64,000 bases of DNA from Nemertoderma westbladi (taxonomy: Eukaryota > Animalia > Xenacoelomorpha). The notes below the pieces were generated by a model. The model made no database searches and was not told the origin of the DNA. It saw only the letters and a list, made by a program, of their open reading frames with translations. This document shows, piece after piece, positions 7,001 to 49,681 of the stretch. Numbering within the stretch: position 1 is the stretch's first letter; the number at the start of each line of letters is the position of its first letter. The stretch covers positions 1-64,000 of the forward strand of contig JAUCBJ010006900.1 in NCBI GenBank assembly GCA_032718475.1, in the 5' to 3' direction. Made by a program: the position numbers and the translations under genes.

Positions 7001-8826
7001 AGGAGCTGCGATCCCATTGGTTCCTCCTCCAACCGCCTCCATGCAGTCACTCAGGAGCCGCGATCCCATTGGTTCCTGCTCCAACCGCTTCCATGCAGTC
7101 AGACTCGAGAGCCGCGATCCCACCAGTTCCTCCTACAACCGCCTCCATGCAGTCACTCAGGAGCCGCGATCCCATTGGTTCCTCCTCCAACCGCCTCCAT
7201 GCAGTCACTCAGGAACCGCGATCCCATTGGTTCCTGCTCCAACCGCTTCCATGCAGTCAGACTCGAGAGCCGTGATCCCACCAGTTCCTCCTACAACCGC
7301 CTCCATGCAGTCACTCAGGAGCCGCGATCCTATTTGGTTCCTGCTCCAACTGCTTCCATGCAGTCAGACTCGAGAGCCGCGATCCCACCAGTTCCTCCTA
7401 CAACTGCTCCATGCAGTCACTCAGGAGCCGCGATCCCATTGGTTCCTCCTCCAAACGCCTCCATGCAGTCACTCAGGAGCCGCGATCCCATTGGTTTCTG
7501 CTGCAACCGCTTCCATGCAGTCAGACTCGAGAGCCGTGATCCCACCAGTTCCTCCTACAACTGCCTCCATGCAGTCACTCAGGAGCCGCGATCCTATTTG
7601 GTTCCTGCTCCAACCGCTTCCATGCAGTCAGACTCGAGAGCCGCGATCCCACCAGTTCCTCCTACAACTGCCTCCATGCAGTCACTCAGGAGCCGCGATC
7701 CCATTGGTTCCTCCTCCAACCGCCTCCATGCAGTCACTCAGGAGCCGCGATCCCATTGGTTCCTGCTGCAACCGCTTCCATGCAGTCAGACTCGAGAGCC
7801 GCGATCCCACCAGTTCCTCCTACAACCGCCTCCATGCAGTCACTCAGGAGCCGCGATCCCATTGGTTCCTCCTCCAACCGCCTCCATGCAGTCACTCAGG
7901 AGCCGCGATCCCATTGGTTCCTGTTCCAACCGCTTCCATGCAGTCAGACTCGAGAGCCACGATCCCATTGGTTCCTTCTCCAACCGCTTCCATGCAGTCA
8001 GACTCGAGAGCCGCGATCCCACCAGTTCCTCCTACAACCGCCTCCATGCAGTCACTCAGGAGCCGCGATCCCATTGGTTCCTCCTCCAACCGCCTCCATG
8101 CAGTCACTCAGGAGCCGCGATCCCATTGGTTCCTGTTCCAACCGCTTCCATGCAGTCAGACTCGAGAGCCACGATCCCATTGGTTCCTTCTCCAACCGCT
8201 TCCATGCAGTCAGACTCGAGAGCCACGATCCCACCAGTTCCTACAACCGCCTCCATGCAGTCAGTCAGGAGCCGCGATCCCATTGGTTCCTGCTCCAACC
8301 GCCTCCATGCAGTCACTCAGGAGCCGCGATCCCATTTGGTTCCTGCTCCAACCGCTTCCATGCAGTCAGACTCGAGAGTCGCGATCCCACCAGTTCCTCC
8401 TACAACCGCCTCCATGCAGTCACTAAGGAGCCGCAATCCCATTGGTTCCTGCTCCAACCACTTCCATGCAGTCACTCAGGAGCCACGATCCCACCAGTTC
8501 CTCCTACAACCGCCTCCATGCAGTCAGTCAGGAGCCGCGATCCCATTGGTTCCTGCTCCAACCGCCTCCATGCAGTCACTCAGGAGCCGCGATCCCATTT
8601 GGTTCCTGCTCCAACCGCTTCCATGCAGTCAGACTCGAGAGTCGCGATCCCACCAGTTCCTCCTACAACCGCCTCCATGCAGTCACTAAGGAGCCGCAAT
8701 CCCATTGGTTCCTGCTCCAACCGCTTCCATGCAGTCAGACTCGAGAGCCACGATCCCACCAGTTCCTACAACCGCCTCCATGCAGTCAGTCAGGAGCCGC
8801 GATCCCATTGGTTCCTGCTCCAACCG
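960..8826 (+). repeat. Satellite array, 52-54 bp monomer (CCGCCTCCATGCAGTCACTCAGGAGCCGCGATCCCATTGGTTCCTCCTCCAA and a 54 bp AGACTCGAGAG variant), segment 1
   Basis: Directly visible tandem repeat, ~150 monomers, with 106/107 and 158 bp higher-order units. Confidence 0.99.
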
Positions 8827-14616: not shown

Positions 14617-14634
14617 ATCCGGGTCCAGGCACCA
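14617..14634 (-). promoter_or_regulatory. tRNA primer-binding site (TGGTGCCTGGACCCGGAT, tRNA-His-like)
   Basis: TGG-initiated 18-mer 3 nt downstream of the 5' LTR; resembles the complement of the tRNA-His 3' end with mismatches. Confidence 0.7.
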
Positions 14635-14907: not shown

Positions 14908-17532
14908 AACCGCCACCATGCAGTCACTCAGGAGCCGCGATCCCATTTGGTTCCTGCTCCAACCGCTTCCATGCAGTCAGACTCGAGAGTCGCGATCCCA
15001 CCAGTTCCTCCTACAACCGCCTCCATGCAGTCACTAAGGAGCCGCAATCCCGTTGGTTCCTGCTCCAACCACTTCCATGCAGTCACTCAGGAGCCACGAT
15101 CCCACCAGTTCCTCCTACAACCGCATCCATGCAGTCACTCAGGAGCCGCGATCCCATTGGTTCCTGCTCCAACCGCCTCCATGCAGTCACTAAGGAGCCG
15201 CAATCCCATTGGTTCCTGCTCCAACCACTTCCATGCAGTCACTCAGGAGCCACGATCCCACCAGTTCCTCCTACAACCGCATCCATGCAGTCACTCAGGA
15301 GCCGCGATCCCACCAGTTCCCCCTACAACCGCCTCCATGCAGTCAGTCAGGAGCAGCGATCCCATTGGTTCCTCCTCCAACCTCCTCCATGCAGTCACTC
15401 AGGAGCCGCGATCCCATTGGTTCCTCCTCCAACCTCCTCCATGCAGTCAGTCAGGAGCCACAATCCCATCTGGTTCCTCCTACAACCACCTCCATGCAGT
15501 CACTCAGGAGCCGCGATGCCATTGGTACCTCCTACAACCGCCTCCATGGAGTCACTCAGGAGCCGCGATGCCATTGGTACCTCCTACAACCGCCTCCATG
15601 CAGTCACTCAGGAGCCGCAATCCAATTGGTTCCTCCTACAACCGCCTCAATGGAGTCACTCAGGAGCCGCGATCCCGTTGGTTCCTCCTACAACCGCCTC
15701 CATGCAGTCACTCAGGAGCCGCAATCCCATTGGTTCCTCCTACAACCGCCTCCATGCAGTCACTCAGGAGCCGCAATCCCATTGGTTCCTCCTACAACCG
15801 CCTCCATGCAGTCAGTCAGGAGCCGCGATCCCATTGGTTCCTCCTACAACCGCCTCCATGCAGTCACTCAGGAGCCACGATCCCATCAGTTCGTCCTCCA
15901 ACCGCCTCCATGCAGTCACTCAGGAGCCACAATCCCATCAGTCCCCCCTCCAACCTCCTCCATATAGTCACTCCGGAACCGCGATCCTATTGGTTTCTCC
16001 TCCAACTGCCACCATGCAGTCTGACTCAGGAGCCACGATCCCATCAGTTCCCCCACCAACCACCTCCATGCAGTCACTCAGGAGCCACAATCCCATTTGG
16101 TTCCTCCTCCAACCGCATCCATGCAGTCACTCAGGAGCCACAATCCCATCTGGTTCCTCCTCCAACCGCCCCCATGCAGTCAGACTCAAGAGCCGCGATC
16201 CCATTGGTACCTCCTCCAAGCGCCTCCATGCAGTCACTCAGGAGCCGCGATCCCACCAGTTCCTCCCACAACCGCCTCCATGCAGTCACTCAGGAGCCGC
16301 GATCCCATTGGTTCCTCCTACAACCGCCTCCATGCAGTCACTCAGGAGCCGCAATCCCATTGGTTCCTCCTCCAAGCGCCTCCATGCAGTAACTCAGGAG
16401 CCGCGATCCCACCAGTTCCTCCTACAACTGCCTCCATGCAGTCACTCAGGAGCTGCGATCCCACCAGTTCCTCCTACAACCGCCTCCATGCAGTCACTCA
16501 GGAGCCGCGATCCCATTGGTTCCTCCTACAACCGCCTCCATGCAGTCACTCAGGAGCCGCGATCCCATTGGTTCCTCCTCCAACCACCTCCATGCAGTCA
16601 CTCAGGAGCCGCGATCCCACCAGTTCCTCCTACAACCGCCTCCATGCAGTCACTCAGGAGCCGCGATCCCATTGGTTCCTCCTACAACCGCCTCCATGCA
16701 GTCACTCAGGAGCCGCGATCCCATCAGTTCCTCCTATAACCGCCTCCATGCAGTCACTCAGGAGCCGCGATCCCATTGGTTCCTCCTACAACCGCCTCCA
16801 TGCAGTCACTCAGGAGCCACGATCCCATCAGTTCCTCCTATAACCGCCTCCATGCAGTCACTCAGGAGCCGCGATCCCATTGGTTCCTCCTACAACCGCC
16901 TCCATGCAGTCACGCAGGAGCCGCGATCCCATTGGTTCCTCCTACAACCGCCTCCATGCAGTCACTCAGGAGTCGCGATCCCATTGGTTCCTCCTACAAC
17001 CACCTCCATGCTGTCAGACTCAAGAGCCGCGATCCCACCAGTTCCACCTCCAACCGCCTCCATGCAGTCACTCAGGAGCCGCAATCCCATTGGTTCCTGC
17101 TCCAACCGCCTCCATGCTGTCAGACTCAAGAGCCGCGATCCCATCAGTTCCACCACAAACCACCTCCATGCAGTCACTCAGGAGCCACAATCCCATTTGG
17201 TTCCTCCTCTAACCGCCTCCATGCAGTCTGACTCAGGAGCCACAATCCCATTTGGTTCCTCCTCCAACCGCCTCCATGCAGTCACTCAGGAGCCACGATC
17301 CCATTTGGTTCCTCCTCCAACCGCCTCCATGCAGTCTGACTCAGGAGCCGCGATCCCATCAGTTCCACCACAAACCACCTCCATGCAATCACTCAGGAGC
17401 CACAATCCCATTTGGTTCCTCCTCTAACCGCCTCCATGCAGTCTGACTCAGGAGCCACAATCCCATTTGGTTCCTCCTCCAACCGCCTCCATGCAGTCAG
17501 ACTCAAGAGCCGCGATCCCACCAGTTCCTCCT
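14908..17532 (+). repeat. Satellite array segment 2 (same 52-54 bp monomer, more diverged)
   Basis: Same monomer resumes in register after the AACCG TSD. Confidence 0.98.
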
Positions 17533-18719
17533 TGTTCGCGCTTTTAGACCTTTAGCAGTTTAACCCGCTAATTTTAGGTGTCTTCTAGTTTATAAATCGA
17601 CTTTAGCCTATAACAAGTATTTGTTGCATATAAGATATAAAGTTACACTAGCCGAAGCCAGCCTATGCGCGACCATTCACCCACACTGGTTCAGGGATGA
17701 CTGGATTCGGAGGCTCTGACCTTATTGCGGTGTAGACTTACTGTACTATTCGATTGATCGTTAATATATAATCTCTGACAAATATTATTTACTTTCGGGA
17801 AATATTAACAGTTCCTTTAGGACGTGGCGCTCTAAGTATGTAAACAGAGTTATGACTTACACTAAACACAACGGGATGGCTAATGATTTTCGTATAAAGC
17901 GCATTCTTTAGGAAATGCTTTGTTATCTGTCACACTCATGCACATTACCGCACACTGCTGCACACTGATCTGCCGACCTTCACTAAATTTGATCATATAT
18001 AAGGAGAACAGCAACTGACACATGTAGGGATTATGAAATAGCATTCAATTCACTCCAAAACCACTATAATGTAAGTCGCAATTGCTACAGGTAACCGGTC
18101 TCTCTAACCTTCAGTATATCAAGAAGATTGGGGTTTTATGATTATTTATCGATATTCTCCAAATATAACAACATATCCATCAACTGATAACAATTAATAA
18201 CCGACAGTAAATAGCAGTAAAATAATGCGGTGAAAGATTGAGTTGATTTGTTTGTATGTGATCAGGTTTGAGTCTGGTAAGGTTTGAGTCTGCTGTGTGC
18301 TGTTTGTTTTGATAACAGTTATACGTTCCTATAATCAAAGCCGTCGAATGTTTGGCTAAAGTCTGAAACTAAGAATAATTCCAAAGCTGATGTTCTGGGC
18401 TCAGGAAAAAGGTAAACAAAGACCGTCATGCATTGCACGATTTCCCGTAGGCTTCTGTGCAAATAAAATGAAAATCGCTCTGATTGGTCGAGTGAGCTGA
18501 ACAAAGAGAGTTAAAAAGCTCCACATCGACATCAAAATCAGTTGATAGATTTCGTCATCTAAGCCACACTGTATTAAGAGTATTTTGGCGTATTGCGGCA
18601 TAAAATGGCTTGTTATGTCCGCTAAAGTACACATACAGAAAAATGTCTTTTTATGTCCACTAAAACACCTACACAGTACTTTGCGGGGAAAATGACTGAT
18701 ATCCGCAAAAGCCTTTACA
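17533..18719 (-). mobile_element. Solo LTR (1187 bp) of the large BEL/Pao family
   Basis: Reverse-complement homolog of 22265-23405; TG...CA ends; CTCCT TSD at 17528-17532 and 18720-18724; no internal region. Confidence 0.95.
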
Positions 18720-18795: not shown

Positions 18796-19098
18796 CGAGT
18801 TTAGCATATGGGTACTGTGTAGTACACACCATTATCATGTAGTTATGTCTGCATGTCGTATGTTATGTTTACTTATACAATATACTATTCAGGTCACTCA
18901 GTATTCACCATCTGCTATCAGACATGGTGCATCCCCCGCAGTGTGTAGGCCTAGCAACCTACGCCAAACCACAGAACCAGCAATCAGCCCACCCAGCCGG
19001 CATTTCATTCATTTAAATAATAACATTTAATGATTACGGTAGCTGAAATTGAAATTGACCTCACTTATATCTACTAACTACTACGACGTCAAACATCA

Positions 19099-20310
19099 AT
19101 GGATCCAAAAGACCCGCGCAACCCCCACACCTTTATATTACGGGCAACCCTGCCCCGATTCGATATCGAAATGGAACGCCACTCTTGGCGCATCTGGAAG
19201 GAGGAATGGTCTGCCTTCCTCATATCATCCGGACTCGCTAACCTCTACATTGAGGATCCCGGTGAAAACCCCAATGCCGCCACCTCGGCCGCCCTTCTAC
19301 GCCAACGCAACTGCCACGCTCGGGCTGCCCTTACAGCGGCGTTCTCCCGACCAACTAATGGTATCGTGCGTGGCCTGGCCCTCCCTGCCGTGATAAACGA
19401 CGACGCCACTGCCGTCGTGGCCCGCCTTGACGCACACATCCAGGGTGGTACCAACATCCGCGTACACCGCCACGAGCTGCTCCGCTGCCGACGTGAACCC
19501 GAAGAAACGCCAGAGACATACCTCGTATGCCTACGAGATATCGCAATAAAATGTGGATTTCGCGAGTTCAACACAGCCGAAGCACACATGGATGACAGGC
19601 TCCTAGATCAGTTTATTGCGGGGTTTGGGGATAAAGATGTAACGGAGAAGCTCCTACGTCTCCCCGCTGGTCAAACCCTGGCCGACGCACTCCAATGCGC
19701 ACTGTCGGTGTGGACCGCACGGAAAGACGCAGCATCCCTCACACTAGCCCCCCCCCCAACCAGTACAGCGATACATACGGAACCCACCGCTAACGCTGCA
19801 TCTGCTGGGCGCCCAGGGCGTGGCCGCAACCGATACTTGGGCCACCCCACTGCCACTCGCGGAATGAGTGACAACAGCACCGGTAAGTGCCAACAATGTG
19901 GCTACCCGCCACACGCCCAGGGCAAGCCGTGCCCTGGCCTTAAAGCCACATGCCGCCATTGTGGCCGTACGGGCCACTATGATCGAATGTGCCTGTCCAA
20001 ATCCAACGCCAACACACAACCAACCCGCGCCCCCCGCCAACCACCAGCACAGGCCCACAACATTGGTGACAGCGAACTGACAGTTTATGATGGTTCCCCA
20101 GACAACGTCCAGCGTCTGGATAACTCGGCCCCACCTCCGCAACCACCCAGGATGGCGAATGGATCCCGCTCCGGTTGGACCTTCCGGGGCTCCTTCCCCG
20201 CCCCAATGAATTCCACCCGGCAAACCAAGTCTGCCGAACCGATGTCTGGGTCCTTGATGGGCTCCGGCAGTCCATCCTCTCTCACGCAGACTGTTTCATG
20301 CTGGAAATAA
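19099..20310 (+). CDS. gag: Gypsy gag with double zinc knuckle (C-terminus probably out of frame)
   Basis: W..WKEEWSAFL, R.RREPEETPETYLVCLR..A.KCGF, RLLDQFIAG, CQQCGYPPH...CPGLKATCRHCGRTGHYDRMC. Confidence 0.85.
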   Translation: MDPKDPRNPHTFILRATLPRFDIEMERHSWRIWKEEWSAFLISSGLANLYIEDPGENPNAATSAALLRQRNCHARAALTAAFSRPTNGIVRGLALPAVINDDATAVVARLDAHIQGGTNIRVHRHELLRCRREPEETPETYLVCLRDIAIKCGFREFNTAEAHMDDRLLDQFIAGFGDKDVTEKLLRLPAGQTLADALQCALSVWTARKDAASLTLAPPPTSTAIHTEPTANAASAGRPGRGRNRYLGHPTATRGMSDNSTGKCQQCGYPPHAQGKPCPGLKATCRHCGRTGHYDRMCLSKSNANTQPTRAPRQPPAQAHNIGDSELTVYDGSPDNVQRLDNSAPPPQPPRMANGSRSGWTFRGSFPAPMNSTRQTKSAEPMSGSLMGSGSPSSLTQTVSCWK

Positions 20311-20461
20311 TGTCGAGCCCATACCTCAACCCAGGCACTACCGCCACATTGCATCCCCAGGTCAGCTCAGCCACTGAGTCATACCCCAACCCAGCCGCAA
20401 CACTGTCTCCCACCACCAAACCCGACACCACTGTGATCACTCCCACCTTCCGCGACGCCGA

Positions 20462-22264
20462 GTGGGCCAAACTCCTGCGACAGTTCCCCACCCCCTCGCT
20501 GGGATCTGCTGTGTTATGGATTGGGGGCCTATCTCCATTAAACTACATCCCGGCTCGCGACCAGTGACCGCCTACCACCACCGGCCCATACCAGTCAACC
20601 TTCGTGCTGCCTTCGACCGCGAGGTAGACGAACAACTCCCGATAGGTATTATCGAACCGGCGGGTGATGAAAACGACCCGGGCACCTGGCTCAATCCAAT
20701 GGTAGTGACACGTAAGAAAGACCCGAACTGTGCAAGGATTACTGTAGATCTACGAGAACTGAATAAAGCTACAGTGCGACCGACCTACTTCAGTCCGAGT
20801 CCCTTCCACATTGTGTCTGCGATACCCACATCTGCGGGCATTTTCACAGTTCTCGATGGCCTCAAAGGCTTTCACCAGGTTGAACTCGATGCCCAAAGTT
20901 GACGCCTCACCACCTTCGTCGCTGCCCATCGCGGCCGAATGCGCTATCGCCGCATGCCGATGGGCTGGCATGGCAGCTCTGACGCCTTTAACACACGCAT
21001 GGACACTGCAATTTGTAACTTGCCTAATACAGGCCGCATCATCTACTCAAACACCATTGAGGAACACATCCAGCACGTCGCGGTGGCCCTGGACGCCTGC
21101 ACCCGCGCCAACATTTCCCTCAACCCACGTAAAACCCAGTTCTGCTGCACCGAGGTCAAGTTCGGTGGTTACCTCATCTCCAAGGGCCGCTTCTGCATCG
21201 ACCCAGACCTCACTCAGGACCTGCGGAACTTCCCCCCACCCAACAACCGCCGTGAGTTGCGCTCATTTCTGGGTCTTGCCCAACAGCTGGGAAATTCAAC
21301 CGCGGATATAACTCGCTTAGTGGAACCACTCCGCAGCCTGAACACCGACCGCCACCCCCGGGAGTGGTTCCCGCCCCACCAGACTGCATTCCTTGACACC
21401 CGGTCCGCCCTGTCTAGCCCACTCTACTTGTCGGGGTTCCACCCCGAGCGACGTACAGAACTCCCCACGGATGCCTCATGCCTCTATGGACTCGGCTTTC
21501 TACTTCGCCAATGGGACCCCGATAATGCTAAGTGGCTCACCATCCAGTGTGGCTCCCGTACCTTAGCCCCACACGAGTCAAACTGGTCTGGAATGGCGGA
21601 GTTGGAGGGGCTCGCCGCCGCCTGGGCAACCAAGAAATGCAGCTACTTCTTGGATGGGCTGAAGCACTTTGATTTAATCACAGACTGCAGCCCCCTTATC
21701 CCAATCCTAAATGACCGCCACCTTGACCAGGTCTCTAATGATCGGCTCTTGAAACTAAAGACAGTGCTGTCACGTTACAACCTAACAGTGCGTCACTAAA
21801 AGGGGGCCAAGCATCTCATTGCAGATGCATTCTCCCACACCCCACAACACCACCCCGTACCCGACGACTTCTTGCTCACCCCAGATGATGAGGCGGACTG
21901 CTCCTACATCATTTCTGTTGCAGCGACTGCGGCCCTGCAGACAGCGGCTGCTTCAACCACATCCATTGGGCCCACGCCATTGGCTGCTCAGGACGCCCGC
22001 CTCTGTCAGATACGAGAGGACGGTCAGAACGACCCAGTCTACTCATCACTGATCTCGCGCATCCACCACGGCTGGCCAGATTCGAAACTGGAACTTATAG
22101 ACCCCGATCTACAGCCGTACTTCAACCACCGAGTGGATCTACAAGTTATCGACAGCCTCGTTCTCCGTGGCCACCGACTGCTGATACCCTCAGCACTGCG
22201 ACCGGAGACCCTGCGCGTCCTCCATGCCGCCCACCAGGGTTTAACTAAAACTCGTCAACGGGCC
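20462..22264 (+). pseudogene. pol: Gypsy pol (RT, RNase H, integrase N-terminus), disrupted
   Basis: WLNPMVVTRKK, RITVDLRELNKA, FTVLDGLKGFHQV, RMPMG, LRSFLGL, TDASCLYGLG, ELEGLAAAWA, TDCSPL, LHAAHQG; internal stops and loss of the YxDD motif. Confidence 0.9.
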
Positions 22265-23405
22265 TGTAAAGGCTTTTGCGGATCTAGCTAGTCATTTTCC
22301 CCGCAAAGTACTCTGTAGGTGTTTTAGCGGACATAAAAAGCCATTTTTCTGTATGTGTACTTTAGCGGACATAACAAGCCATTTTATGCCGCAATACGCC
22401 AAAATACTCTTAATACAGTGTAGTTCAGATGACGACATCTATCAGCTGATATGTCGATGTGGAGCTTTTTGGCTTTCTTTGTTCGGCTCACTCGACCAAT
22501 CAGAGCGATTTTCATTTTATCTTGTACAGAAGCCTACAGAAGATCGCGCAATGCATTATGGTCTTTGTTTACCTTTTTTCCTGAGCCCAGAACATCGGCT
22601 TTGGAATTATTCTGTGTTTCAGACTTTAGCCAAACATTAGAACGGCTTTGATCATAGAAACGTATAACTGTTATCAAGTCAAGTCACATCAACTCAGCAT
22701 ATCATACTATACATACCTTTCACCGCATTATTTTACTGCTTTTACTGTCGGTTATTAATTGTTATCAGTTGATGGAATGTTGTTATATTTGGAGAATATC
22801 AATAAATAATCATAAAACCCCAATCTTCTTGATATACTGAAGGTTAGAGAGACCGGTTACATATAGCAATTGCGACATACATTATAGTGGTTTTGGAGTG
22901 AATTGAATGCTATTTCATAGACCCTACATGTGTCAGTTGCTGTTCTCCTTATATATGATTAAAATTAGTGAAGGTCGGCAGATCAGTGTGCAGCAGTGTG
23001 CAGTTGTGTGCATGAGTGTGATAGATAACAATGCATTTCCTAAAGAATGCGCTTTATACGAAAATCAATAGCCATCCCGTTGTGTTTAGTGTAAGTCATA
23101 ACTCTGTTTACATATTTAGAGCGCCACGTCCTAAATGAACTGTTAATATTTCCCGAAAGTGAATAATATTTGTCAGATATTATATTAATGATCAATCGAA
23201 TAGTACAGTAAGTCTACACCGCAATAAGGTCAGAGCATCCGAATCCAGTCTCCCTTAACCGCGGGTGAATGGTTGCGCATAGGCTGGCTTCGGCTAATGT
23301 AACTTTATGTGTATCAAATACTTGTTATAGGCTAAAGTCGATTTATAACCTAGAAGACACCTAAAATTGGCAGGTTAAACTGCTAAAGGTCTAAAAGCGC
23401 GAACA
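22265..23405 (+). repeat. 5' LTR of outer large BEL/Pao copy
   Basis: TGTAAAGGCTTTT...AAAAGCGCGAACA; direct repeat of 48539-49676. Confidence 0.96.
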
Positions 23406-23416
23406 ATAACAGTTAT
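23406..23416 (+). promoter_or_regulatory. Non-tRNA primer-binding site ATAACAGTTAT, complementary to LTR 11-mer ATAACTGTTAT (22664-22674)
   Basis: No TGG after the LTR; 11/11 complementarity; covarying equivalents in the inner and third copies. Confidence 0.75.
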
Positions 23417-24079
23417 TCTTTCTTTATTGCAACGTAGGCAATAAAGGCAAAAGTACCGGTCGACTGGTAACCAGTAGGCCTAACTACCTAACCACCCGAA
23501 CCGGTACTTACAGCAGTACAGGTACATCAGTATTATTCGATTTTGATAATTATATACCGGTAGGTCTTGATATTTAATCAGGGACTGCAGCCCTGGTTTT
23601 TTATTGGGATTTTACTTATTTCTGTCAGTTTTATTTATCTATAAGTTAATATTGAGCAGAAGGCATGTAAGCCTGCTCAGTTTGTACAGATAATTTGTAG
23701 GCTGGATTGTTGTCTGACTGTTGTTAAGTATGAAGAGATTGCAGTGTGTGTAGAGTGTATGTCCGATAAAGTACTAGTTAGGAACGTGGGGGCATCCAGT
23801 GCTGTAAGGTAAATCCCCCCCCCCCCCCCGAAAGAATAAGTTGTACTACTTGGTTAGAACGCATACTAACTAACCATTTCGGAGTCTGCATATACTGTAG
23901 TTTATTTAGGCTTGATAGTAGTCTGTCAGCATTTGGTTTGTATTTTGTTTGTGTAGTCTGTACGGGTAGCGTAATATTTATTATTCAGAGTATATGCGAT
24001 TATTCGCAACATTCACAACCCCAAGTTTATTCCTACAGTAATTGTGCTTGTTATACATACCGTTATAGTTAAATTAACC

Positions 24080-24783
24080 ACCGTTATCCGGTGAAACTTT
24101 CACCCATCGTACCACCTCGACGGACCAGCAGGCGAGGCTGGATGTGTCTGTGAGCGGCTTCTGGGGAAACCGATTCCAGCGGTCGTTCATCGACGTGTCC
24201 GTGTTTAACCCGCTGGCGGCGACGAACGCGGCTATGTCCCTAGACGCAGCGCACCTCCACCATGAGAATCGTAAGATTCTTAAGTACGAGGAGAGGATAC
24301 GGGAGGTGGAACATTCTACTTTCGTCCCCCTCATATTCTCGGCCTTTGGCGGGATGGCGCCGACCACGCGCCAGTTTGTTAAGCGCCTGGGACAGAAGCT
24401 CGCGGACAAACGCGAGGTCAGGTACTCGGAATGCGTCACGTGGATCCGGCGCAAGTTAAACTTCGCGTTGCTTCGTTCCTCCCTGCTCTGCCTTCGAGGT
24501 TGTAGGTCAGCCTCTAAACGGCCGGTTCATTGTCCAGTGTCTGATGCCTCCATTCGGTTGGACAACGCCGACACTGAGCCGTAGCCTGGTAGTACAGCGC
24601 AGTCGTACAGGCCTACAATAGCTGACCAGTAGGCCTACAACATAAACAACCAACTGTTTTGAATTTCCCCCTTACATCCGTATCACTGTACCTCATTGTA
24701 TAAATCAGATTTGGTGATAGGGTGTAATAGTGCAATTTGAAATCCATTGTATCAACTATGTTATTATACTATCATTCTCACCC
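24080..24783 (+). mobile_element. 5'-truncated CRE-type (RLE) non-LTR retrotransposon inserted in the BEL leader
   Basis: 13 bp TSD AGTTAAATTAACC (24067-24079, 24784-24796); absent from the other family copies; PLSGETF..ARLDVSVSGFW..FIDVSVFNP..KYEERIREVE..FVPLIFSAFGG..WIRRKLNFALLRSSLLCLRG. Confidence 0.9.
24144..24584 (+). pseudogene. RLE endonuclease C-terminal fragment
   Basis: RLD...D...E..K..KY restriction-like endonuclease motif pattern; 5' truncated. Confidence 0.85.
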
Positions 24784-26539
24784 AGTTAAATTAACCCCGG
24801 TACTACATCAGGGCTGTTTGGCGTAGGTAAAGACTGGTGATTTTATGCTCTAGTCACTCCAGCAGATACCATGGTTCTTTTAGCTGTACAAGTATTTTTA
24901 ACTGCTGGTTATTTGTTGTATAAGTACTTGTACCTAATTTAGGGTTTAGTGTACAGTGCTTTCCGAAGGTAATTAGTTTGTAGGCAGTATATTTGTGTTG
25001 TAAAGTGGTTAATAGGCACGTTAGCTATGGTTGGTTGTGGTAATTAACTTCTAGGTAGGAACACTCCGGGTACATAACGTAGTACTTATAGAGCTGTAAA
25101 GCTAGAGACTATAAGTCATCAGACGGTGGTATTTTCCTATCTAGACAATGCAATATATTTACTACTGCTTTATTATTTTCAAATACCGAAGTATCCTGTC
25201 CGTTTGTAATAACCAGAAATTCTAACTCCTTGTGTTCGCGCTTTTGAAGACCTTTAGCAGTTTAACCTGCCAAAATTTATATGTCTTTTAGTTAATTAAC
25301 ACACCTTTAGCATACGACAATATTTTATGCTAATAAACAAAACATTAGCCGAAGCCAGCCCATGCGCGATCATTCACCCGATGGATCTACACCCGGGAGG
25401 CTGAATTCGGATGCTTAGATTTTATTATTGCAGTGTAAGGTTGCAGTGTAAACCTATTGTATTATTCGATAGATCACTAATATGTAATTTCTGACAGATA
25501 TTATTAACTTTCGGGAAATATTAACAGTTCCTTTAGGACGTGGCGCTCTATCTATTTAAACAGAGCTAGGACTTATACTAAACGCAACGATAAGGCTTAT
25601 GATTAAAGTATAAGTCGCATTCTTTAGGAAATGCTTTGTTACCAGTCACATCACACTCACAATCATGCACACTATTCTGCCGACCGTCAGTATATTTGAT
25701 CACACATAAAGAGAACAGCAATTGACTCACGTAGGGTCTGCTAAATAACATTGGATTCAATACACACCACATTAATATAAATCGCAATTGTTATGTATAG
25801 CCGGTCTCTCTAACCTGTAGTGTATCAAGAAAATTGGGAATTTGGGTGATTTATCCGTATTATCCAAAGAGCAATATTTCCATCAACAAATAGGTACAAT
25901 TAATAACTGACGGTAAATAGCAGTACAAACAATATGATTAGTGCAGTTAAATTAAGTGAGGTAACACCGCCGGTAACAGTTATACTTTCTATAATCTAAG
26001 CAGTTTTACTAGAGTTTCTAGAGCCGGTGTTTCTGGCTTAGACAGCAATAACAACAAAGTATCAAGTAAGAGCAGTAAGACTGAACACTCTCCTTATGAT
26101 CGGCTGAAAAGCTACACGTCGACAGGAAAAATCGCTCTGATTGGCTCAAGCCAAACAAAGAACCGTACATCCAATGGCTGTTTCCATGTCAGCAACCAGC
26201 TGTTAGATGTCGTAATATGAATCATCACGGCTAAGCTGTGAAAGGTAATTGGTGCATTACAGGTTTTTTGCCTTACCATGTCCGCCAAAACACGTATATA
26301 GCAGAATTACTTTTATGTCCGTTAAAACACCTGTAAAGGTACCTTGCGGGCGAGGGGAATATATATACAGTCAGAGAACCCTTTTAGAGTATTCCAGCGC
26401 CTGGGGGGAAACTGGATTGCGAAGCAAAAGGGGCCAGTTATATCCCACAGAAGCTTTTACACCGCTCCCAGAAAATGGGATTTAAGTCTATAAAATATAC
26501 AAAATCACAGTTTCTAAAATATAAAAATACTCTAAACAG

Positions 26540-27829
26540 TTAGTCTTTCTTGCGCGGACGGCGTTTACGCAGTTTTTTAAAGCTAGCAAGAGTCTTTTTC
26601 TCTTTGGGGCGAGCCACTTTACGAGGAGGGCTATAACTCCTGGGTGAAGGGTGCAATATGATTGCATCAGAGGGTGTAGGATTATGGTCGGTGTATCCGC
26701 CGGTCGAAGTACCGGGTTGATTGACATCAACGTCCGGGGAGAGGGGTCTAACGGCTTTGAGAGCTCGTTTCAAGACAGCCGCTCTTACGGGTCCTGTACG
26801 AGTGGTCTGCACGAGGGCCGTGGGTGGACCATAAGTAGTTAGAAACTTCCTTGGTTTAATGGTTCTTTCCAACTCGCGTTCGCGGGCTCGGTACTCGTAA
26901 GGCCGTCGATATACTTCCTGTAACTCGATATGCGTGATTTCTGTTCGACAGAAGCGAATAGATAAGGATGGAACGCATAAATTCCTTTGTAAGCGCGTCC
27001 AGGATAATAGCGATGGCGCGAATCACGATGTAAATCAGCGTTCGCTTCCCAAGCTCTAATGTAACGTAGTGTGATCATTTCATCTACGCTTTCCAAATCG
27101 CGATTAAAAGGGCAATCGAAACTGGCGTGTCCCTTTAGTGGACAGTGGTGACATTGAGTCATAAATTGAGGGCAAACCGCAAAAATATGCAAATTATTAA
27201 ATCTGCAATACGCTCAATAAATTTCCATCGCCGGTTGTTCGTGGAAATAGGAACAGCGGACGTTTGTGTCCATGGGCGTAACATGGTCTCTCGATGCGCA
27301 TAACCGACAACGTTGCCGAGAAACATAGTTGGCATGGCGATAATCGTACGCAGTGAGACACTGTGGACCTTGATACCATTCTAGGATGTAATCGTTGTCG
27401 CTGTTCCGAGCGCGATAGGCTGAATCTCCTCAGATTCTAGGCATATTGGTTCGTCTTCACAGTCTGTTACGAATAGAATTTTCGTGATCTATTCTCGGTT
27501 TATCGTTACGACTCCGCTGGGTATGATATTTAAATAGAACCATTTCCCTTTAGGGTGTCTACATCGTCCGTATCATGTAAATCGATAGGATGGCCGGTAG
27601 TTAAGAAGTCCATATACGTACCATTACGATGCGTATAGCGAGCGGTTAATTTTCGATAGTCCAATTCACGCGTAAGTTGCTCTTGGGACATCGGCGGTTC
27701 GATATAACGACCATCGTCCTCCGTAATAGTCGGATCGGCTTCACCGCGTATCAAGCTATCCACAAACGCTTGTAAAGGTAGAGTATATCGCTCTCTAATA
27801 CCAAGGTCATCTTCTATCAATTCCGTCAT
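26540..27829 (-). pseudogene. Deleted, frameshifted remnant of the extra ORF (N-terminus, zinc-knuckle region and basic tail; exonuclease region missing)
   Basis: Homologous to 44247-44610 and 47380-48460; deletion junction near 27460. Confidence 0.88.
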
Positions 27830-29446
27830 ATCTGCTATCTGAGTTTGTTAATATCAATATAAGTTAATATTTTAGGCAAGCGGGCGTCGTTGCCTACTAG
27901 GCTTTTCGCCCCCGGACAGTGGGTTTCTCAGCGCCGATGTACCGTTGTCGCGGTGTTTGCGCCAACATGTAGCAACAGCACGACAACGATAATCGACACA
28001 AGTCCCACCACTGTCCGTCCCAAAGGCTTGAATCCACTTGAGGTTATCTCGGTAGAGTTAGGCTACTTTACAATTGCGATTAGCTACTGTAAACACACTT
28101 TAGTAGTATCATTCACCTATAAACGCACAAATTCCATACAATCATTACTTACTGCACACATGCAAGCCATTTTGTCCGTTAGTCATTGTCTTCCAGAATG
28201 TCACGTTATTACTATGTATCCTTGGATACTAATAGTGCGCTATGTATTCTCTTATGCTACGCAATGGGCAAGCCTTTTATTGTTACTTTAACTTGCTTCT
28301 AATTCTAGCGTGGGTGTTGCCATGGTGACATTATGGAAAACTAGCGGTAGAATTAGGGTAATTCTCATGCATACAGATCTGGGATGTTATTTAATAGTAA
28401 TTCTTTAATTGTCAATATCCTCTTTATGCATGATTTTATAAATTTTATCGGCTATTGACTATATATTGGAGATTCTCGCACTCTAGTACACTCAATATGA
28501 ATCTCCGCTCCCATGATCTATTAATTACTGGAATTTTGGGAATGTTGTAAATTGCACAAAATGACAATTTATGAAATTCATTCGAATATGAATTTAAATT
28601 TATTCCCGTGAATTTTATTATTTGATGTTAAATTTGACACAATTTGATTCCAGAGCAGGTCTGGGGACATAGGATCCTTAATTCTATGAAATTTGTCTTT
28701 TAAGAGTATCAGTAAGTGCTACGATATCTTAATCGACTAGAATTGTTAACGGATCTGAATTTTACAGATTTTAATAAATATTAAATTAATATTTAAGATG
28801 GGCACCGATTTATTCCAGAGCTTGTCTGGGGACGTTAACCACTGATTCTAGAATTTGTCTTTCAAGTATATCGGTGGGTGCCGCGATATCTTAATCGACT
28901 AGAATTACAGATGGTCAAAAGGTTTAACAGATTTATTTGCGTTTTACGCTACTGTTAGAGGGACATCACGCTACTATATGTATTATCTGTTATAAGGTAG
29001 AAGAGCAATATCGCACGAAGCAATGTCAGTGTGAAGAGGCAAGTCGTTTCCAAGGTCTACCCAGAGCTTGGTTTAGCCGAGACACGAGGATCTGAACTTT
29101 GCATTCCTAATACTCTGCCTACCAATAATACTTAAATATAGTAGGAGCTTTATTGTACTTTAATAAGTACGGACATGTCATCTTACTATAGTCTCGCATT
29201 TATAATATAATACGGACAGTAAGGAAAGAGAAAAGAATTATTTCTCGCCGTCGCACTAGATATATTATGTAATTACGTAATAAACACTAATATATTGCAC
29301 TAATCTACTAAATAATCTAAATAACATTCCACTAAATAAAATTAAATAAAACGATTATAATAAAGTACATAATAATCCATACCTAAATATAAAATAATAA
29401 TAAAAAAATATAAAATAATATAGTCACACACCCACTCCATATATAA

Positions 29447-31789
29447 TTACGTTATGGAGTCCCTAGATCTTTGTCGAATTAGGGAAGTGGTCGTAGGAAG
29501 AGTATCCTGCCTTCCATGGTTTCCGGACAGTTTTCGGTCTCTTTCCAGTAAACCTAAGCGACCAGCTGGGCGATTAGGCTGTCGTGTTACTTCCTCCGCT
29601 CCCTTGGCCTGTCTAATCTCCTCAGTGGTAAGATGAGGAGGCCATTCATCTTCTTCTTTACTTAGGGAGTCGGGTCCACCTAACCAGCCGGGAGTATCTA
29701 TCCGTTCTTGAGGAGTCGCTCCTCTGGAAGCGATGTCGGCTAGATTAATCATCTCGGGGCGATGTCTCCATTGATCTTCATTGGAGTTAATATCGTCATT
29801 ATCTGAGGAGTATGGTGTTCCCTCAGTTAGTTCGTCCACTTCACTGCTCTCCACTTCCAAACCATTTATCTGGTATAGTCTTTCTGATGGTAGTCTCTCT
29901 TCGAGAGTTCTGCGGGAAGGACCAGTAAAGTACCAACCTACTCTAGTTCTTACCGCATAGGTTTGTAGTGGCTGCGGTTGAGCAGGTCGTTTTTCCAATG
30001 TCTCGAGCGCCTCGTGCGCGTTTTGGCCGATAAGTATTTGCACTCCAGGATAATCTGTCTGGAATCGAGGTATCTTAAGATGTTGGATGCTCTCATCCTC
30101 GTCCCAATTATAAAGGTCTGCTTGGGTAGTAGCGAAGTTCTTTATAGCCACCATTTTTACTGACCTTATACTTTGTGCTCCTAATTTATCCTGGGGGGTG
30201 GACAACGCACCTACATAGTAATCTGCCGTTATGGTAGATTTCCAAACCTGCATAATTCCGGATATATTCAACTTAGTTTGGAATTTGGGTTGTCCAGCAA
30301 AGATATCTTCGGCTAGTTCTTGATCGATGAATGTTCCTGTGCTGCCGGAGTCAAGGAGTGCGTTCACTATGTAACTTTTGTTGGGACCGTGAACTCTTAC
30401 CTGCACTACAGGAAATTCTCTGATTCCTACGTTGGAAGCTGGAGCTTTCCAAGATGGTTGTTTGTCAAAGGTGGTTGGGGGGAACTCCGTGTCGGTGTCT
30501 TTTTCGTACGTAAGTGCTCGATACACTGCGGTATTTATTAGATAACAGGATTCGTTGGCATCGGAGAATTCGTCCGTATAGAATCCTTCCCACTCAGAAC
30601 TTTGGTCAGTGTCGTTCACATCACTGAATTGGACATGTGATTTGGGCTCACTTACCTGACTCGGGCTGTTTCGTTCGAATTCCGTGTGCAACAAGCTATG
30701 ATGTTTCGCGCCGCACTTAGCACACCTTGCGTCAGAGTAACAGGTTCGCCGCTGGTGTCCGCGTCTGAGACAGTTATAACATAACCGCTTATCCCACAGG
30801 ACTCCACGTCTATCTGCCATGGATTTCTTTAGGAATTCTGCACACGCACTCAAACGGTGGGGCCCGTCGCACAGCGCACATTTTGGTTTGATGTTACTCA
30901 CCTTAACTTGGTTAACGTTCTGCACTCTCGTTCTTTCTTCGGGCTTTCTTCCGTGAATTCTCTTAGGAGACGTAGGAGGAGTTGTTGTTACCTGTTCTCT
31001 CCTGTCACTGGTTCGAGACTTGTATTTACTTACGTCTTTATAGGTCTTGTTGTCATAGTAAGATCGTTCGGTGTCTTTCCCGCTGTCCTCTTCTTGAGAA
31101 GCTTGGCTTTCGCCGTCGTCAGTATAACACACTGGTATTATCCTTCTCCTAGAATCGGGTTTCTCACTTACCTTATTTTCCGATGTTTTCTCTCTGGCCT
31201 GCCTTATGAGTTGTAATTTTACTTCACTATCTAAGAAGGACATGAGATCAGCCATGATAGGACTTCGTCGTTGTTGTTCATTCATGTACAACACTTTCTT
31301 GTCCCAGCGCGTACATACTCCACCCTTTGGTAAAGTAGAGACTACGGCTCCAATGACCATGGAACTCTGATATTCATGCGACTTACCTAACCAGTCCAGT
31401 TGTCTACAGATCTCTTGAATTTCATCGGAAAACTCTATAATCCCGCTACTAAGGAAGTGTCGGGGGGCTACTAATTTTGCATACAAATACTTAGCTATGT
31501 TATCCTTGTTACCATACCTGATGTTTAATGTATCCCAAACTTGTCTTAATCCATCTGGATGTCCAATAAACTTTAACGCCATTAACTTGGGAGGTCCTTC
31601 CAAGCACTTGATGAGGAATCTAAGTTTCTCTCCGTTAGATAGTACAGAGTTCTGTATGCTATCTTTGTAATATTCGTTGAAAGGTAACCATTTCATCTCA
31701 TCTCCATTGAATTTGACGATCTCTCCCACTTTGACCGCTTGGCGGGCTTCTGTTCTAGCCATCTGACGCGTAAAGCTTTCTTGGACCAT
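29447..31789 (-). pseudogene. gag: Large-BEL gag core plus aspartic protease, fused by deletions to short RH/IN remnants
   Basis: KFNGDEMKWLPF..Y..SI, EKLRFLIKCLEG, CALCDGPHRLSAC / CYNCLRRGHQRRTC / CAKCGAKHHSLLH knuckles, ALLDSGSTGTFI protease; then QWRH..INLADIASRG and NRPAGRL remnants. Confidence 0.9.
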
Positions 31790-31797
31790 CGTGTTAT

Positions 31798-33618
31798 TTA
31801 ATATCGAATTATCGGTATATAAATTTCTCGGATCATTATCAGGTCTATAGGGAATATCATTAATAACAGGTCTATAATCACCCTTAATAGGGTTTCAACT
31901 TCACTAGCAGTATAGATGCGTGTAGGCTCCACACCTTGCGCATGTAGTACTTCAGACCTAACAGGTTGACACAATGTTACAGGGGGTATTGGTATGCCCT
32001 TTTGTATATTGACTAATTTGTCGCGTTCTAGCGCGATACTTTGCTGCACTTCTTGCAACTCTGCTCTACCTTCCCTCACTGTTCCCTTAAGTTGGTGGAC
32101 AGTCTCCTGCATCTGTCCTAGCAGGAGATTCATCCCCCGCCGTCCCTCTTCCACCCACTCAACCGCCGAAGCGGGAGTCGCCAACATAGTAGCGGGCTGA
32201 CGCGGGACGACGGGAGACAAATTATTGATTTCTCTCTCTGCTATCTGGACAGGGGTATTTGCATGGACTGTTCCACCGGGTACAGGCAGTGTAGTACTAT
32301 GTAAAGGGAATTTAGAGTTAAGCTCTGGAAGTGTAGGGGTCTCTAGCACAGAAGTGACTTTGGGAACAACAGGCCTAATTATTTCAGGTTCATCGACTAT
32401 AGTAGGGAGTCTTTTGACCTGGATAAATTGTTCTATGGGTTCTGCACTACCTAAATCTGTGCTAGTTAGCTGTCTTTTAACAGCTGGGGGCAAATCAGGC
32501 AATTTGCGACGGTAATATGTTTTTCTACGCCTACTTAGATGAGATCTATTTCCTCCGCCTTCAGGGTCGGTAGTATCGCCTTCCTCCGAGGATGTGTACC
32601 CTTGGCGCTTGGGAGTAGATTTTCTCATCATCTGCATTTGATTAGCAGTAAACTGTTTATTTATACTGTCTTGTGTCTCTTGCAGATTTTCCAACTCCAG
32701 TTGGGTAGTCTGCTCAAATGCTCTCCTTTCTGCTTCTGCCACTGTTGCCTTTCTTTCGGCTTCCGCCGCTTTTCTTTCTTCTTCTGCTTCTGCCGCTTTT
32801 GCCTTTCTTTCGGCTTCTGCTTCTTTTCTTTCTGCTTCTGCTTCCGCCGCCGCTGCTGCTGCTACCTTTCTTCTCTCTATCAGTTCTTTCTTTACTTGTT
32901 CTTCTCGGACTCTAATGAGGCGGAGTTTTTCATCACATTCAGCTTGGTTTGCAGCTAACATTTCGGCATCGATTGCGTCCAACACAAGCTTGGTTCCTTC
33001 ACTATTAGGGGAAAGTCCAGACAGCCGTCTCCTCAACTCTTCGTCTCCTAGGAATCGCTGATAGTCGGACAAATAAATGTCGATAGCGTCTCTAGTTCGC
33101 GGCTTCTCTGCTGATGTTAATTCGCTTTCCACTTCGCTTTCCACCTCGCTTTCCACTTCGCTTTCCACCTCACTTTCCACTTCGCTTTCCACCTCACTTT
33201 CCACTTGAGAAGAAGTGGCGTCGGTTGATTCCCCACAGGCTGGCCGCCCATCATAAACCGTATCCGCCATCTTCGCTCCGCGTTCTGGCGTCCGCTCAAC
33301 AGTATCCGAACTACTGGAGCTATCGGGCCGCTGAGAACTAGGTTCTTGGCTAGGAGGTTGCTGCTGTTTTATAGCTTCTTCTTGATCCCGCTTGACTTGG
33401 GCCCGAGTGCCTATGGCAGACCAACGGCGCTTCACTAACTTCGCAAATTGCGAAATCTTTTCTACCAACCTAGGTTCTGTCACAACCACTGCAGGGGTTG
33501 CCCTTCTTACAGTATGAGGGGTTTCAGACCTCGGTCTGGGATTCTCTACACTTTGATCTGAGAAACAGGCTGTTGTTTCTAGGAGACTATCTGACAGAGT
33601 TTGCCTTGTGTCAGCCAT
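31798..33618 (-). pseudogene. gag: Long N-terminal gag extension (low-complexity/coiled-coil), frameshifted from the gag core
   Basis: Homologous to 37952-39949; (ESEV)n 12 bp repeats at ~33122-33207 and AEAERKA repeats. Confidence 0.8.
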
Positions 33619-35893
33619 GTTTGATTGTACAGTCGAATGCCTACTGCTATATTACAGTTAAAGCAAGTCTAGTAATTCAGTATCACTGTTAGCCTAATAA
33701 TTAATTACCGATACTGCTACTCAGTGTAGCGTGATATATATATAATATATTAGAATACCGGTATGCTTATAGTATATATAAGTATTATTACAGACTAGAT
33801 TTGTCACAGAGTACCGGTATATAAATTTAGCACAAATATATATAAATATATAATAGGCCTATAGTGAATACCGGTATACAGCTTACACTTACAGCATGTA
33901 AGTATAATTATGAACTAGAATTAATTACAGAGTACCGGTATGATTTCAGCTCAAATTTATAGAGATAAATATAATAAGCCTATAGTGAGTACCGGTATGT
34001 CAATTATTTTAGAATAATTGAATCTCTGAATATTTTAGGGCTACTTGGTTACTTTAACTTACTTTGTTACCGTTATTTAAGCAGTAGTCCAACTGATAGT
34101 GAGACCTAGTTTTTGTATGACAGGCCTACTATTTATAAATCGTTTGATTTGATTTATAATATTTATATACCCGTTATATGGGTTTTTGTCAATATTTGAA
34201 ATAAATGTTATTATTTCTGGGGGAGTCACTACACAGAAGCTGAACGCCTCTCAGTGAAGTGCTATTTATTTGACACTAAAACTGATAATTCTAATTTACC
34301 TAAGTTACTTAATACTACAAATTACTTACGATATGGGTGAGATTAATTCTCTAATTAAACACAACAAAATATTACGTACGAAATTTTTAGGGTAATTTTA
34401 CAGGAAGTCTACAAACCAGCCTAACAAAGGGTTAGAATTCTGGTTATTACTGTATTACAACGGACAGGGTACTACGGTATTTGAAAATAATAAGTAGTAG
34501 TAAATATACTGCGTTGTCCAGATAGGAAAATACCACCGCCTGACGACCTATAACCGTATCGCTATAGGTACTACGTTATGTATCACGGATTGTTCCTACC
34601 CAGAAGCTAATAGAGCTAACGAATGTGCCTATCAACCACTTTACAACACAAATATACTGCCTACACTAATTACTTCGGAAAGCACTGTACACTAAACCCT
34701 AAATTAGGTACAAGTACCGGTATAACAAATAATCAGTAGTTAAATATACTTGAACAGTTAAAAGAACCACGGCATTTGCTGGAGTGACCGAAGCACAAAA
34801 TCTCCAGTCTTTACCTACGCCGAGCAGCCCTGATGTAGTACCGGGGTTAGTTTAACTATAACGGTATGTATAACAAGCACAATTACTGTAGGAATAAACT
34901 TGGGGACATGAATGTTGCGAATAATCGCATAAACTCTGAATAATAAATATTACGCTACCCGTACAGAATACTCAAACAAATACAAACCAAAACGCTGGCA
35001 AACTACTATCAAGCCTAAACAAACTACAGTATGTGCAGATTCTGAAACTGTTAGTTAGTATGCGTTCTAACACGGTAGTACGACTTACTCTTTAAGAGGG
35101 GATTGTCCTTACAGCATATGGCTGCCCCAACTTACTAACGGCACTTGATCAGACCAACTCTACACACGCAGCAATCCCTTCAGACCTAAAAATAGCTAGA
35201 CAACAATCCAGCCTACAAATATTTGAGTAATAACTATTACGGTACCTGAACAGACCACACAAACAAACTCAGGCTAAAACACTGGCAGACTACGATCAAG
35301 CCTAGATAAACTACAGTATATGCAGATTCTGAAATAGTTAGTTAGTATGCGTTCTAACACGGTAGTACGACTTATTCTTTAAGAGGGGATTGACCCTACA
35401 GCATATGGCTGCCCCAACTTACTAACGGCACTTTATCAGACAAACTCTACACACGCCGTAATCTCTCCAAACTCAACAACAGTCAGACAGCAACTCAGCC
35501 TACAATTATCTGAACAATCTGAGCAGGGTCACACGCCTTCTGCTCAATATTAGCCTACTAGTAAATAAAACTGACAGAAATAGACCTAAGTAAAATCCCA
35601 ATAAAAACCAGGCGTCCCCGATTTAATATCGAGACCTACCGGTATACAATAATCAAAATCGAATAATACTAAATGTACTTGTACAGCAGTACCGGTACCA
35701 GTGATGACAGTTAGGCCTACTGACCTACAGAAGCACCGGTTCAGTTTTACCAGTCACTACGGTATTTTGCAACCTTATTGCCTACTGCAATAAGATTATT
35801 AACTGTTACTGTTCGACAGAACAGTATTAAACTGTATTTAATGCCTACACTTGCAACCTTATTGCCTACTGCAATAAGATTAATAACTGTTAC

Positions 35894-37122
35894 TGTTCGC
35901 GCTTTTGAAGACCTTTAGCAGTTTAACCTGCCAAAATTTATATGTCTTTTAGTTAATTAACACACCTTTAGCATACGACAATATTTTATGCTAATAAACA
36001 AAACATTAGCCGAAGCCAGCCCATGCGCGATCATTCACCCGATGGATCTACACCCGGGAGGCTGAATTCGGATGCTTAGATTTTATTATTGCAGTGTAAG
36101 GTTGCAGTGTAAACCTATTGTATTATTCGATAGATCACTAATATGTAATTTCTGACAGATATTATTAACTTTCGGGAAATATTAACAGTTCCTTTAGGAC
36201 GTGGCGCTCTATCTATTTAAACAGAGCTAGGACTTATACTAAACGCAACGATAAGGCTTATGATTAAAGTATAAGTCGCATTCTTTAGGAAATGCTTTGT
36301 TACCAGTCACATCACACTCACAATCATGCACACTATTCTGCCGACCGTCAGTATATTTGATCACACATAAAGAGAACAGCAATTGACTCACGTAGGGTCT
36401 GCTAAATAACATTGGATTCAATACACACCACATTAATATAAATCGCAATTGTTATGTATAGCCGGTCTCTCTAACCTGTAGTGTATCAAGAAAATTGGGA
36501 ATTTGGGTGATTTATCCGTATTATCCAAAGAGCAATATTTCCATCAACAAATAGGTACAATTAATAACTGACGGTAAATAGCAGTACAAACAATATGATT
36601 AGTGCAGTTAAATTAAGTGAGGTAACACCGCCGGTAACAGTTATACTTTCTATAATCTAAGCAGTTTTACTAGAGTTTCTAGAGCCGGTGTTTCTGGCTT
36701 AGACAGCAATAACAACAAAGTATCAAGTAAGAGCAGTAAGACTGAACACTCTCCTTATGATCGGCTGAAAAGCTACACGTCGACAGGAAAAATCGCTCTG
36801 ATTGGCTCAAGCCAAACAAAGAACCGTACATCCAATGGCTGTTTCCATGTCAGCAACCAGCTGTTAGATGTCGTAATATGAATCATCACGGCTAAGCTGT
36901 GAAAGGTAATTGGTGCATTACAGGTTTTTTGCCTTACCATGTCCGCCAAAACACGTATATAGCAGAATTACTTTTATGTCCGTTAAAACACCTGTAAAGG
37001 TACCTTGCGGGCGAGGGGAATATATATACAGTCAGAGAACCCTTTTAGAGTATTCCAGCGCCTGGGGGGAAACTGGATTGCGAAGCAAAAGGGGCCAGTT
37101 ATATCCCACAGAAGCTTTTACA
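35894..37122 (-). repeat. 5' LTR of inner large BEL/Pao copy
   Basis: Direct repeat of 25233-26461. Confidence 0.96.
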
Positions 37123-49676: not shown

Positions 49677-49681
49677 GGGCC

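Follow-up and report, generated by a model that had tools for sequence, protein, structure and literature searches.

Candidate self-priming and a putative two-state RNA switch in a BEL/Pao retrotransposon family of Nemertoderma westbladi

How does a BEL/Pao retrotransposon without a recognizable transfer RNA (tRNA)-type primer-binding site (PBS) start its minus-strand DNA synthesis? The question is raised by a family from the xenacoelomorph Nemertoderma westbladi, found in a 64,000-nt stretch of DNA (contig JAUCBJ010006900.1 of assembly GCA_032718475.1, positions 1 to 64,000, forward strand), hereinafter the window. According to the profile of the International Committee on Taxonomy of Viruses (ICTV), the Belpaoviridae have a PBS of 18 nt complementary to the 3′ end of a host tRNA, and BEL/Pao replication is tRNA-primed and poorly understood (PMC8742986); neither PBS nor tRNA is mentioned in the main text of a BEL/Pao survey (PMC3118150) or of the Sinbad paper (PMC554778). 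Comparison of the copies in the window suggests that this family probably primes minus-strand synthesis with an 11-mer of its own RNA, termed site A, and that it likely also has a two-state RNA switch.

Three copies, from three independent BEL/Pao subfamilies, are available in the window for comparing A with the PBS. Their long terminal repeats (LTRs), with target-site duplications (TSDs) where these are present, and the two complementary sites are the following:

22265-23405, forward strand: 5′ LTR of the outer copy, 1141 nt, TGT...ACA, 98.7% alike to its 3′ LTR, TSD GGGCC
48539-49676, forward strand: 3′ LTR of the outer copy (second LTR match)
35894-37122, reverse strand: 5′ LTR of the inner copy, 100% identical to its 3′ LTR, TSD CAAGG
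25233-26461, reverse strand: 3′ LTR of the inner copy (second LTR match)
60644-61835, forward strand: 5′ LTR of the third copy, whose element continues beyond the window edge
22664-22674, forward strand: site A of the outer copy, candidate self-primer
23406-23416, forward strand: PBS of the outer copy, abutting the LTR end
36644-36634, reverse strand: site A of the inner copy, within the 5′ LTR
35883-35893, reverse strand: PBS of the inner copy
61086-61096, forward strand: site A of the third copy, within the 5′ LTR
61836-61846, forward strand: PBS of the third copy

The LTR ends of the outer and inner copies are set by the second LTR and the 5-bp TSDs. Between A and the LTR end, similarity among the three 5′ LTRs is 79-80%; upstream of A it is 60-75%. 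The initial annotation overstated matters in calling all three copies full: the third extends past the window edge, and both other copies lack the core of the reverse transcriptase (RT).

All six 11-mers were confirmed, with A and PBS complementary at 11/11 positions in the outer copy, 11/11 in the inner copy (one compensatory change relative to the outer) and 10/11 in the third. A stands at a homologous LTR position, 742 (outer), 751 (inner) and 750 (third) nt before the LTR end, and TGG is absent from the first 60 nt past the 5′ LTR in all three copies, which accordingly do not carry the 18-nt PBS for a host tRNA 3′ end that is expected of BEL/Pao. The covariation claimed at the outset holds as well: 32 of 33 A:PBS cells in the three-copy alignment are Watson-Crick pairs, with four compensatory changes. 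A:PBS is the best of the 131,283 ungapped 11-column window pairs of this alignment, and the only other two with at least 29 cells are A:PBS shifted by one. The duplex begins at base 1 after the LTR and ends at 11 nt in the outer and inner copies and at 12 nt in the third. Among the three PBSs, 4 of the 11 positions vary. In dinucleotide shuffles of the LTR, an 11/11 site arose in 1/2000 (outer) and 2/2000 (inner), and a site of at least 10/11 in 58/2000 (third). As the outer 11-mer is an odd-length palindrome, the outer copy alone is compatible with an inverted and with a direct repeat; the other two copies show that the repeat is inverted.

This arrangement recalls the Tf1/sushi group of Ty3/gypsy chromoviruses, in which there is no tRNA PBS and an 11-nt PBS directly after the 5′ LTR is complementary to an LTR site (PMC7175516, PMC4600332). 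The Tf1 primer measures 11 nt (PMC7175516), and Tf2 of Schizosaccharomyces pombe and Tj1 are similar to Tf1 (PMC4600332, PMC5341516). The window family likewise has a PBS complementary to 11 nt of its own LTR, without TGG. However, it carries Pao-type domains only, with no chromodomain match, which puts it in another superfamily and rules out membership of Tf1/sushi; its A:PBS loop spans about 740 nt; and, whereas the 11-nt RNA 5′ end is the primer of Tf1, A is a candidate primer and only putatively the RNA 5′ end. Self-priming has also been predicted for Tcn1 (Ty3/gypsy) and the TAR lineage of Ty1/copia (TAR, Houba, Osr-1), based on a complement of at least 10 nt that starts 0-5 nt after the LTR (PMC6317226). 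That is the same sort of evidence as ours but comes from other superfamilies and plant hosts, and such predictions imply that the trait arose more than once. The comparison element within the window is a small, distantly related BEL, which does use a TGG-type PBS as previously stated:

14617-14634, reverse strand: PBS of the small BEL, a 3-nt spacer followed by TGG

No self-complement to this PBS was found in the small BEL, and ARAGORN found no tRNA gene within the window.

What, then, would keep A from its PBS until priming is due? When the three-copy alignment was folded with RNAalifold, A paired not with the PBS but with an LTR-internal site, B, which is a split mimic of the PBS. This and the other conserved structures are located as follows:

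23024-23060, forward strand: site B of the outer copy (RNAalifold), made of PBS nt 1-6, an invariant hairpin at 23033-23050 and PBS nt 8-11; potential pairing partner of A over -3 to +12
36295-36278, reverse strand: B hairpin of the inner copy, within the 5′ LTR
61463-61479, forward strand: B hairpin of the third copy, within the 5′ LTR
22645-22653, forward strand: 5′ arm of helix H3, outer copy, 19-11 nt upstream of A
23228-23236, forward strand: 3′ arm of H3, outer copy, adjoining a hexamer at 23223-23228 that resembles a poly(A) signal and may act as one
near 36662-36654 and 36082-36074, reverse strand: H3 arms of the inner copy, within the 5′ LTR
near 61067-61075 and 61660-61668, forward strand: H3 arms of the third copy, within the 5′ LTR
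17533-18719, reverse strand: solo LTR of the outer subfamily (read 18719-17533), the fourth LTR bearing A, with B and both H3 arms; TSD AGGAG, 94.1% alike to the outer LTR
23367-23386, forward strand: hairpin near the LTR end, kept through G-U changes, in 5 of 5 LTRs examined
23425-23443, forward strand: hairpin just downstream of the PBS, in all three copies, with one compensatory pair

In each of the three copies, B and the PBS agree at all ten positions compared, including the base at which A of the third copy mismatches. The A:B pairing covers 14, 16 and 14 of 16 positions in the three copies and continues for 3-5 nt beyond the upstream end of A, again with matched changes. H3 is paired in 27 of 27 cells (G-U allowed), with 4 compensatory columns. 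A scan for helices of at least 8 bp with at least 3 compensatory columns returned only A:PBS and H3; one of 12 column-shuffled alignments yielded a single helix of that kind. B escapes the scan because each of its arms is shorter; a 7-column scan yields three distinct helices, among them the 7-bp arm of B. H3 and A:B are nested, while A:PBS excludes A:B and crosses H3. Rfam gave no match up to E 5 across 22200-24100, and no hammerhead core was discerned in B by eye. Of 16 relatives, only 2 have a clear B-like copy of the PBS (an exact match over 9 nt), so B is not established as a general feature.

The conserved portion of the LTR contains three occurrences of the motif CTAAAG (23042-23048, the 23132-23138 region and 23383-23389); one copy forms the loop of the invariant hairpin of B, and the motif is a possible protein-binding signal. 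Separately, the outer LTR at 22843-22920 (forward strand) and the homologous sites of the inner and third LTRs carry two conserved splice-like signals, counted from A: one resembling a donor at +170 to +188 and one resembling an acceptor at +247 to +266. In all three copies they could delimit an intron of 77-78 nt or provide a subgenomic donor.

By analogy with Tf1, we propose that the leader would fold A onto the PBS, that the RNase H of the element, supplied in trans for the RT-deleted copies, would cut after the 11th base of A, and that RT would extend the new 3′ end. A could pair alternatively with the PBS or with B, and both A:B and H3 require sequence upstream of A. Thus, an RNA containing A should also contain at least 19 upstream bases, either as leader if transcription starts upstream or as the 3′ LTR copy. 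The fold of single sequences depends on this start: RNA beginning at A forms A:PBS at 0.94 in the outer copy and 0.52 in the third, and with at least 60 upstream bases added the fold shifts to A:B, A:PBS falling to 0.01 and 0.0, respectively. The predicted 3′ end folds to A:B at 0.74, 0.50 and 0.33 in the three copies and at 0.08 in the solo LTR, long-range predictions of this kind being weak.

Several observations weigh against priming by A as outlined. In the third copy, A:PBS is interrupted by a central G-A mismatch, and the duplex reaches -6.1 kcal/mol as against -10.1 and -11.7 in the others. At this mismatch it is PBS and B that have changed, both in the same way, and A that retains the base of the other copies, a pattern that strict copying of primer into PBS would not predict unless A changed afterwards. 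The covariation is drawn from only three subfamilies. The inner leader gives A:PBS at 0.0-0.02 from every start tried, H3 is predicted in only one of four single-sequence folds of the predicted 3′ end, and there is no TATA box 25-30 nt before A. Finally, Tf1 self-priming needs a three-duplex 'pretzel' (10.1101/2022.12.06.519325), the side helices of which were not found at homologous positions here; the pretzel-type candidates are G-U-rich, lie at non-homologous positions and do not covary.

The hard stop of the duplex at 11 nt favours a 5′-terminal primer. Conversely, the missing TATA box favours an upstream start, as does the presence, in 3 of 16 relatives, of TATA-like sites 49-64 nt ahead of the primer. 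A transcript start exactly at 22664 is doubtful, since A:B and H3, both covarying, use sequence 3-19 nt upstream of A. Two models accommodate these points. In the first, which we rate slightly above an even chance, transcription starts at least 20 nt upstream, and the leader would alternate between two folds, one closed (A:B, H3) and one competent for priming (A:PBS). In the second, which falls a little short of even, A marks the transcription start; the closed fold would then be confined to the 3′ LTR copy and would keep the A located there off the PBS.

Could the primer be a host RNA acting in trans, such as a tRNA half of the kind used by some Copia groups or another small RNA, with A:PBS only masking the PBS until packaging? 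The middle of A resembles the anticodon loop of tRNA-Asn, and PBS and B agree where A of the third copy disagrees, as if matched to another RNA. Half-tRNA priming does yield a non-TGG PBS in Osser, Bryco, Gymco-II and Bianca (PMC6317226). However, the PBSs here vary at 4 of 11 positions and the many PBSs of the relatives each match their own LTR, variation that one host RNA cannot track; half-tRNA use in BEL/Pao is also undescribed in the papers examined. We therefore regard a host-RNA primer as unlikely.

The two mutually exclusive, covarying partners of A, the abutment of H3 on the poly(A)-signal-like hexamer and the reach of the helices upstream of the supposed RNA start would also suit a regulatory switch acting on translation, polyadenylation or packaging, with priming by another route at or near the site. 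Yet the start point of minus-strand synthesis sets the LTR end, where nothing would make a purely regulatory helix begin, whereas the duplex begins exactly at the LTR-end base in all three copies and within 0-5 nt of it in the relatives; moreover, no other primer site was seen. A switch unconnected with priming thus earns little credence from us. Since both LTRs contain A, and B would occupy it whenever upstream bases are present, the primer might alternatively be the copy of A near the RNA 3′ end, or one from a second RNA molecule, B sequestering the 5′ copy. This is very improbable: the predicted 3′ end also favours A:B, so that the 3′ A looks sequestered too, and more unusual steps are needed than in the Tf1 route. 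Chance complementarity, aided by an AT-rich near-palindrome (the outer 11-mer is an odd palindrome and 10/11 matches occur in about 3% of shuffles), can practically be dismissed given the homologous position, the four compensatory changes and the same signature in relatives with different letters.

Self-priming through A is the part of the initial annotation's interpretation that is supported, on the strength of the covariation, the duplex from the first post-LTR base, the 11-nt stop as in Tf1 and the many relatives with a self-complementary PBS. Among the records listed in the literature searches, with subscription papers, Repbase and GyDB outside their scope, no published report of self-priming in BEL/Pao was found, and such a Tf1-like mechanism is apparently unpublished for the group. 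It would not be a new kind of mechanism, being known from Tf1/sushi, Tcn1 and TAR; the new part is the PBS mimic B and the upstream helix H3, neither of which is described for the Tf1 group in the text examined. If the proposal is true, BEL/Pao would be the third LTR superfamily without tRNA priming, and BEL/Pao elements without a PBS could be annotated by a sequence rule. B and H3 also suggest how the element may avoid premature cutting of its own messenger RNA.

Is the trait private to this lineage? The initial annotation supposed that it had evolved here independently, a view that the relatives do not support. A protein scan of metagenomes supplied them, the best 79 of at least 577 confirmed loci: 49 without a usable LTR, 20 with an unfixed LTR end and 10, in six families, with an end fixed by a second copy (in L025/L034 this copy stops at the contig end, making the LTR end less firm). 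Five of the six fixed-end families lack TGG and have a PBS complementary over 10-15 nt to a GT-AG junction in their own LTR, after a spacer of 0-5 nt (shuffles 0-1/200 each); the sixth, L010, has a TGG PBS. Among the 20 unfixed-end loci, 11 give a complement of at least 11 nt, six spliced and five contiguous (shuffles 0-16/200), and 10 of these 11 follow ACA, though the search demanded only CA. The other nine lack a complement of that length, one of them, L062, being TGG-type. A GT-AG-junction match of the PBS was seen in L025, L044, L071, L069, L041, L013, L035, L050, L063, L046 and L015. In L009, L032, L045 and L054, which form a nested clade, the primer is contiguous instead. Most candidate primers of the relatives end in AC or AT. 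The primer of the window family is itself contiguous, unlike that of the splice-junction relatives: a search for a splice-built primer gave none in the outer and inner copies and a single candidate in the third, which has a weak donor and no counterparts and was put down to chance.

Trees were built on the RT C-terminus, RNase H and integrase, without reference elements of the named clades (Pao, BEL, Tas, Suzu, Sinbad, Dan, Flow). With 26 rows (17 labelled, 8 unlabelled and the outer pol) and a mixture model, IQ-TREE placed the outer element on a long branch as sister to all self-complementary families with moderate support (90/92), the TGG types falling outside; a quick 45-row tree gave the same placement (97). 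A topology constraining the element to group with L010 was rejected by a narrow margin (p-AU 0.044). Two points count against this placement: FastTree on a query-anchored alignment put the element outside the self-complementary clade, and the AU (approximately unbiased) test is not only marginal but concerns a group chosen after the trees were seen. From the sister position, self-priming inherited from a shared BEL/Pao ancestor appears likelier than a private origin. We tentatively entertain the wider possibility that a broad, hitherto undescribed BEL/Pao clade swapped tRNA priming for self-priming, gated here by a two-state switch in which the split PBS mimic holds the primer and then hands it to the PBS, and achieved in sister families by splicing the primer.

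The assignment to BEL/Pao itself follows from protein and LTR evidence, which makes the family a variant despite the missing tRNA-type PBS. Two coding regions bear on it:

39729-42785, forward strand: outer pol remnant with RT C-terminus, RNase H and integrase; Pfam Peptidase_A17 (E 3e-36), DUF5641 and Integrase_H2C2; RT core deleted
29447-33651, reverse strand: inner gag-protease region in two frames; Pfam DUF1759 (E 4e-12); most of pol deleted

The pol (Peptidase_A17, integrase, DUF5641) and gag (DUF1759) domains are those of BEL/Pao; PF05380 is present in 80 of 81 homologues among the matches listed, and the closest homologues are 33-35% identical across most of the length. The TG...CA LTR ends, the TSD and the polypurine tract of BEL/Pao are all present. 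With the Belpaoviridae of the ICTV profile the family shares the gag-pol order, the Pao RNase H region, an LTR of up to about 1.2 kb and a polypurine tract before the 3′ LTR, the TSD here being 5 bp. The outer and inner copies are deletion derivatives, and as the RT core is absent from both, the recent inner insertion was likely mobilized in trans. Of 9 sequencing runs listed, 6 contain the stretch or a part of it, no RNA run being among those listed, and the four that were compared consist of contigs. Copy number is high, with 7392 contigs matching the family in one run; among the 40 sequence differences listed out of 119, none falls at A or the PBS. A 21-nt LTR pattern had 0 matches in metagenome contigs, and the 7 viral loci retrieved with a 16-nt pattern match only over 17-25 nt, which we ascribe to chance.

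Some further features of these copies and their surroundings may be recorded. The outer leader has an insertion at 24080-24783 flanked by a 13-bp direct repeat; its open reading frame (ORF) has no Pfam match and resembles the end of a non-LTR retrotransposon endonuclease. In the inner copy, a 49-nt tandem duplication (35767-35899, reverse strand) repeats the LTR end, PBS and hairpin; the displaced PBS is changed at position 11, and the LTR-abutting PBS remains 11/11. After pol, about 3.6 kb of broken accessory ORF(s) (44807-48460, forward strand; fragments at 26540-28744, reverse strand) have no Pfam match; one such ORF has zinc-knuckle-like motifs, with ESM Atlas leads of at most 0.85. The outer BEL interrupts a Gypsy-like element (19078-22264 and 49677-50899, forward strand; ORFs judged by eye), giving a three-level nesting of the inner BEL inside the outer BEL inside the Gypsy-like element. 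Long tandem arrays with a 52-54 bp unit, about 87% alike, adjoin the LTRs of the small BEL (959-8826 and 14908-17532), and a Copia-like element at 54869-59635 (reverse strand) has 246-nt LTRs that are 99.6% alike.
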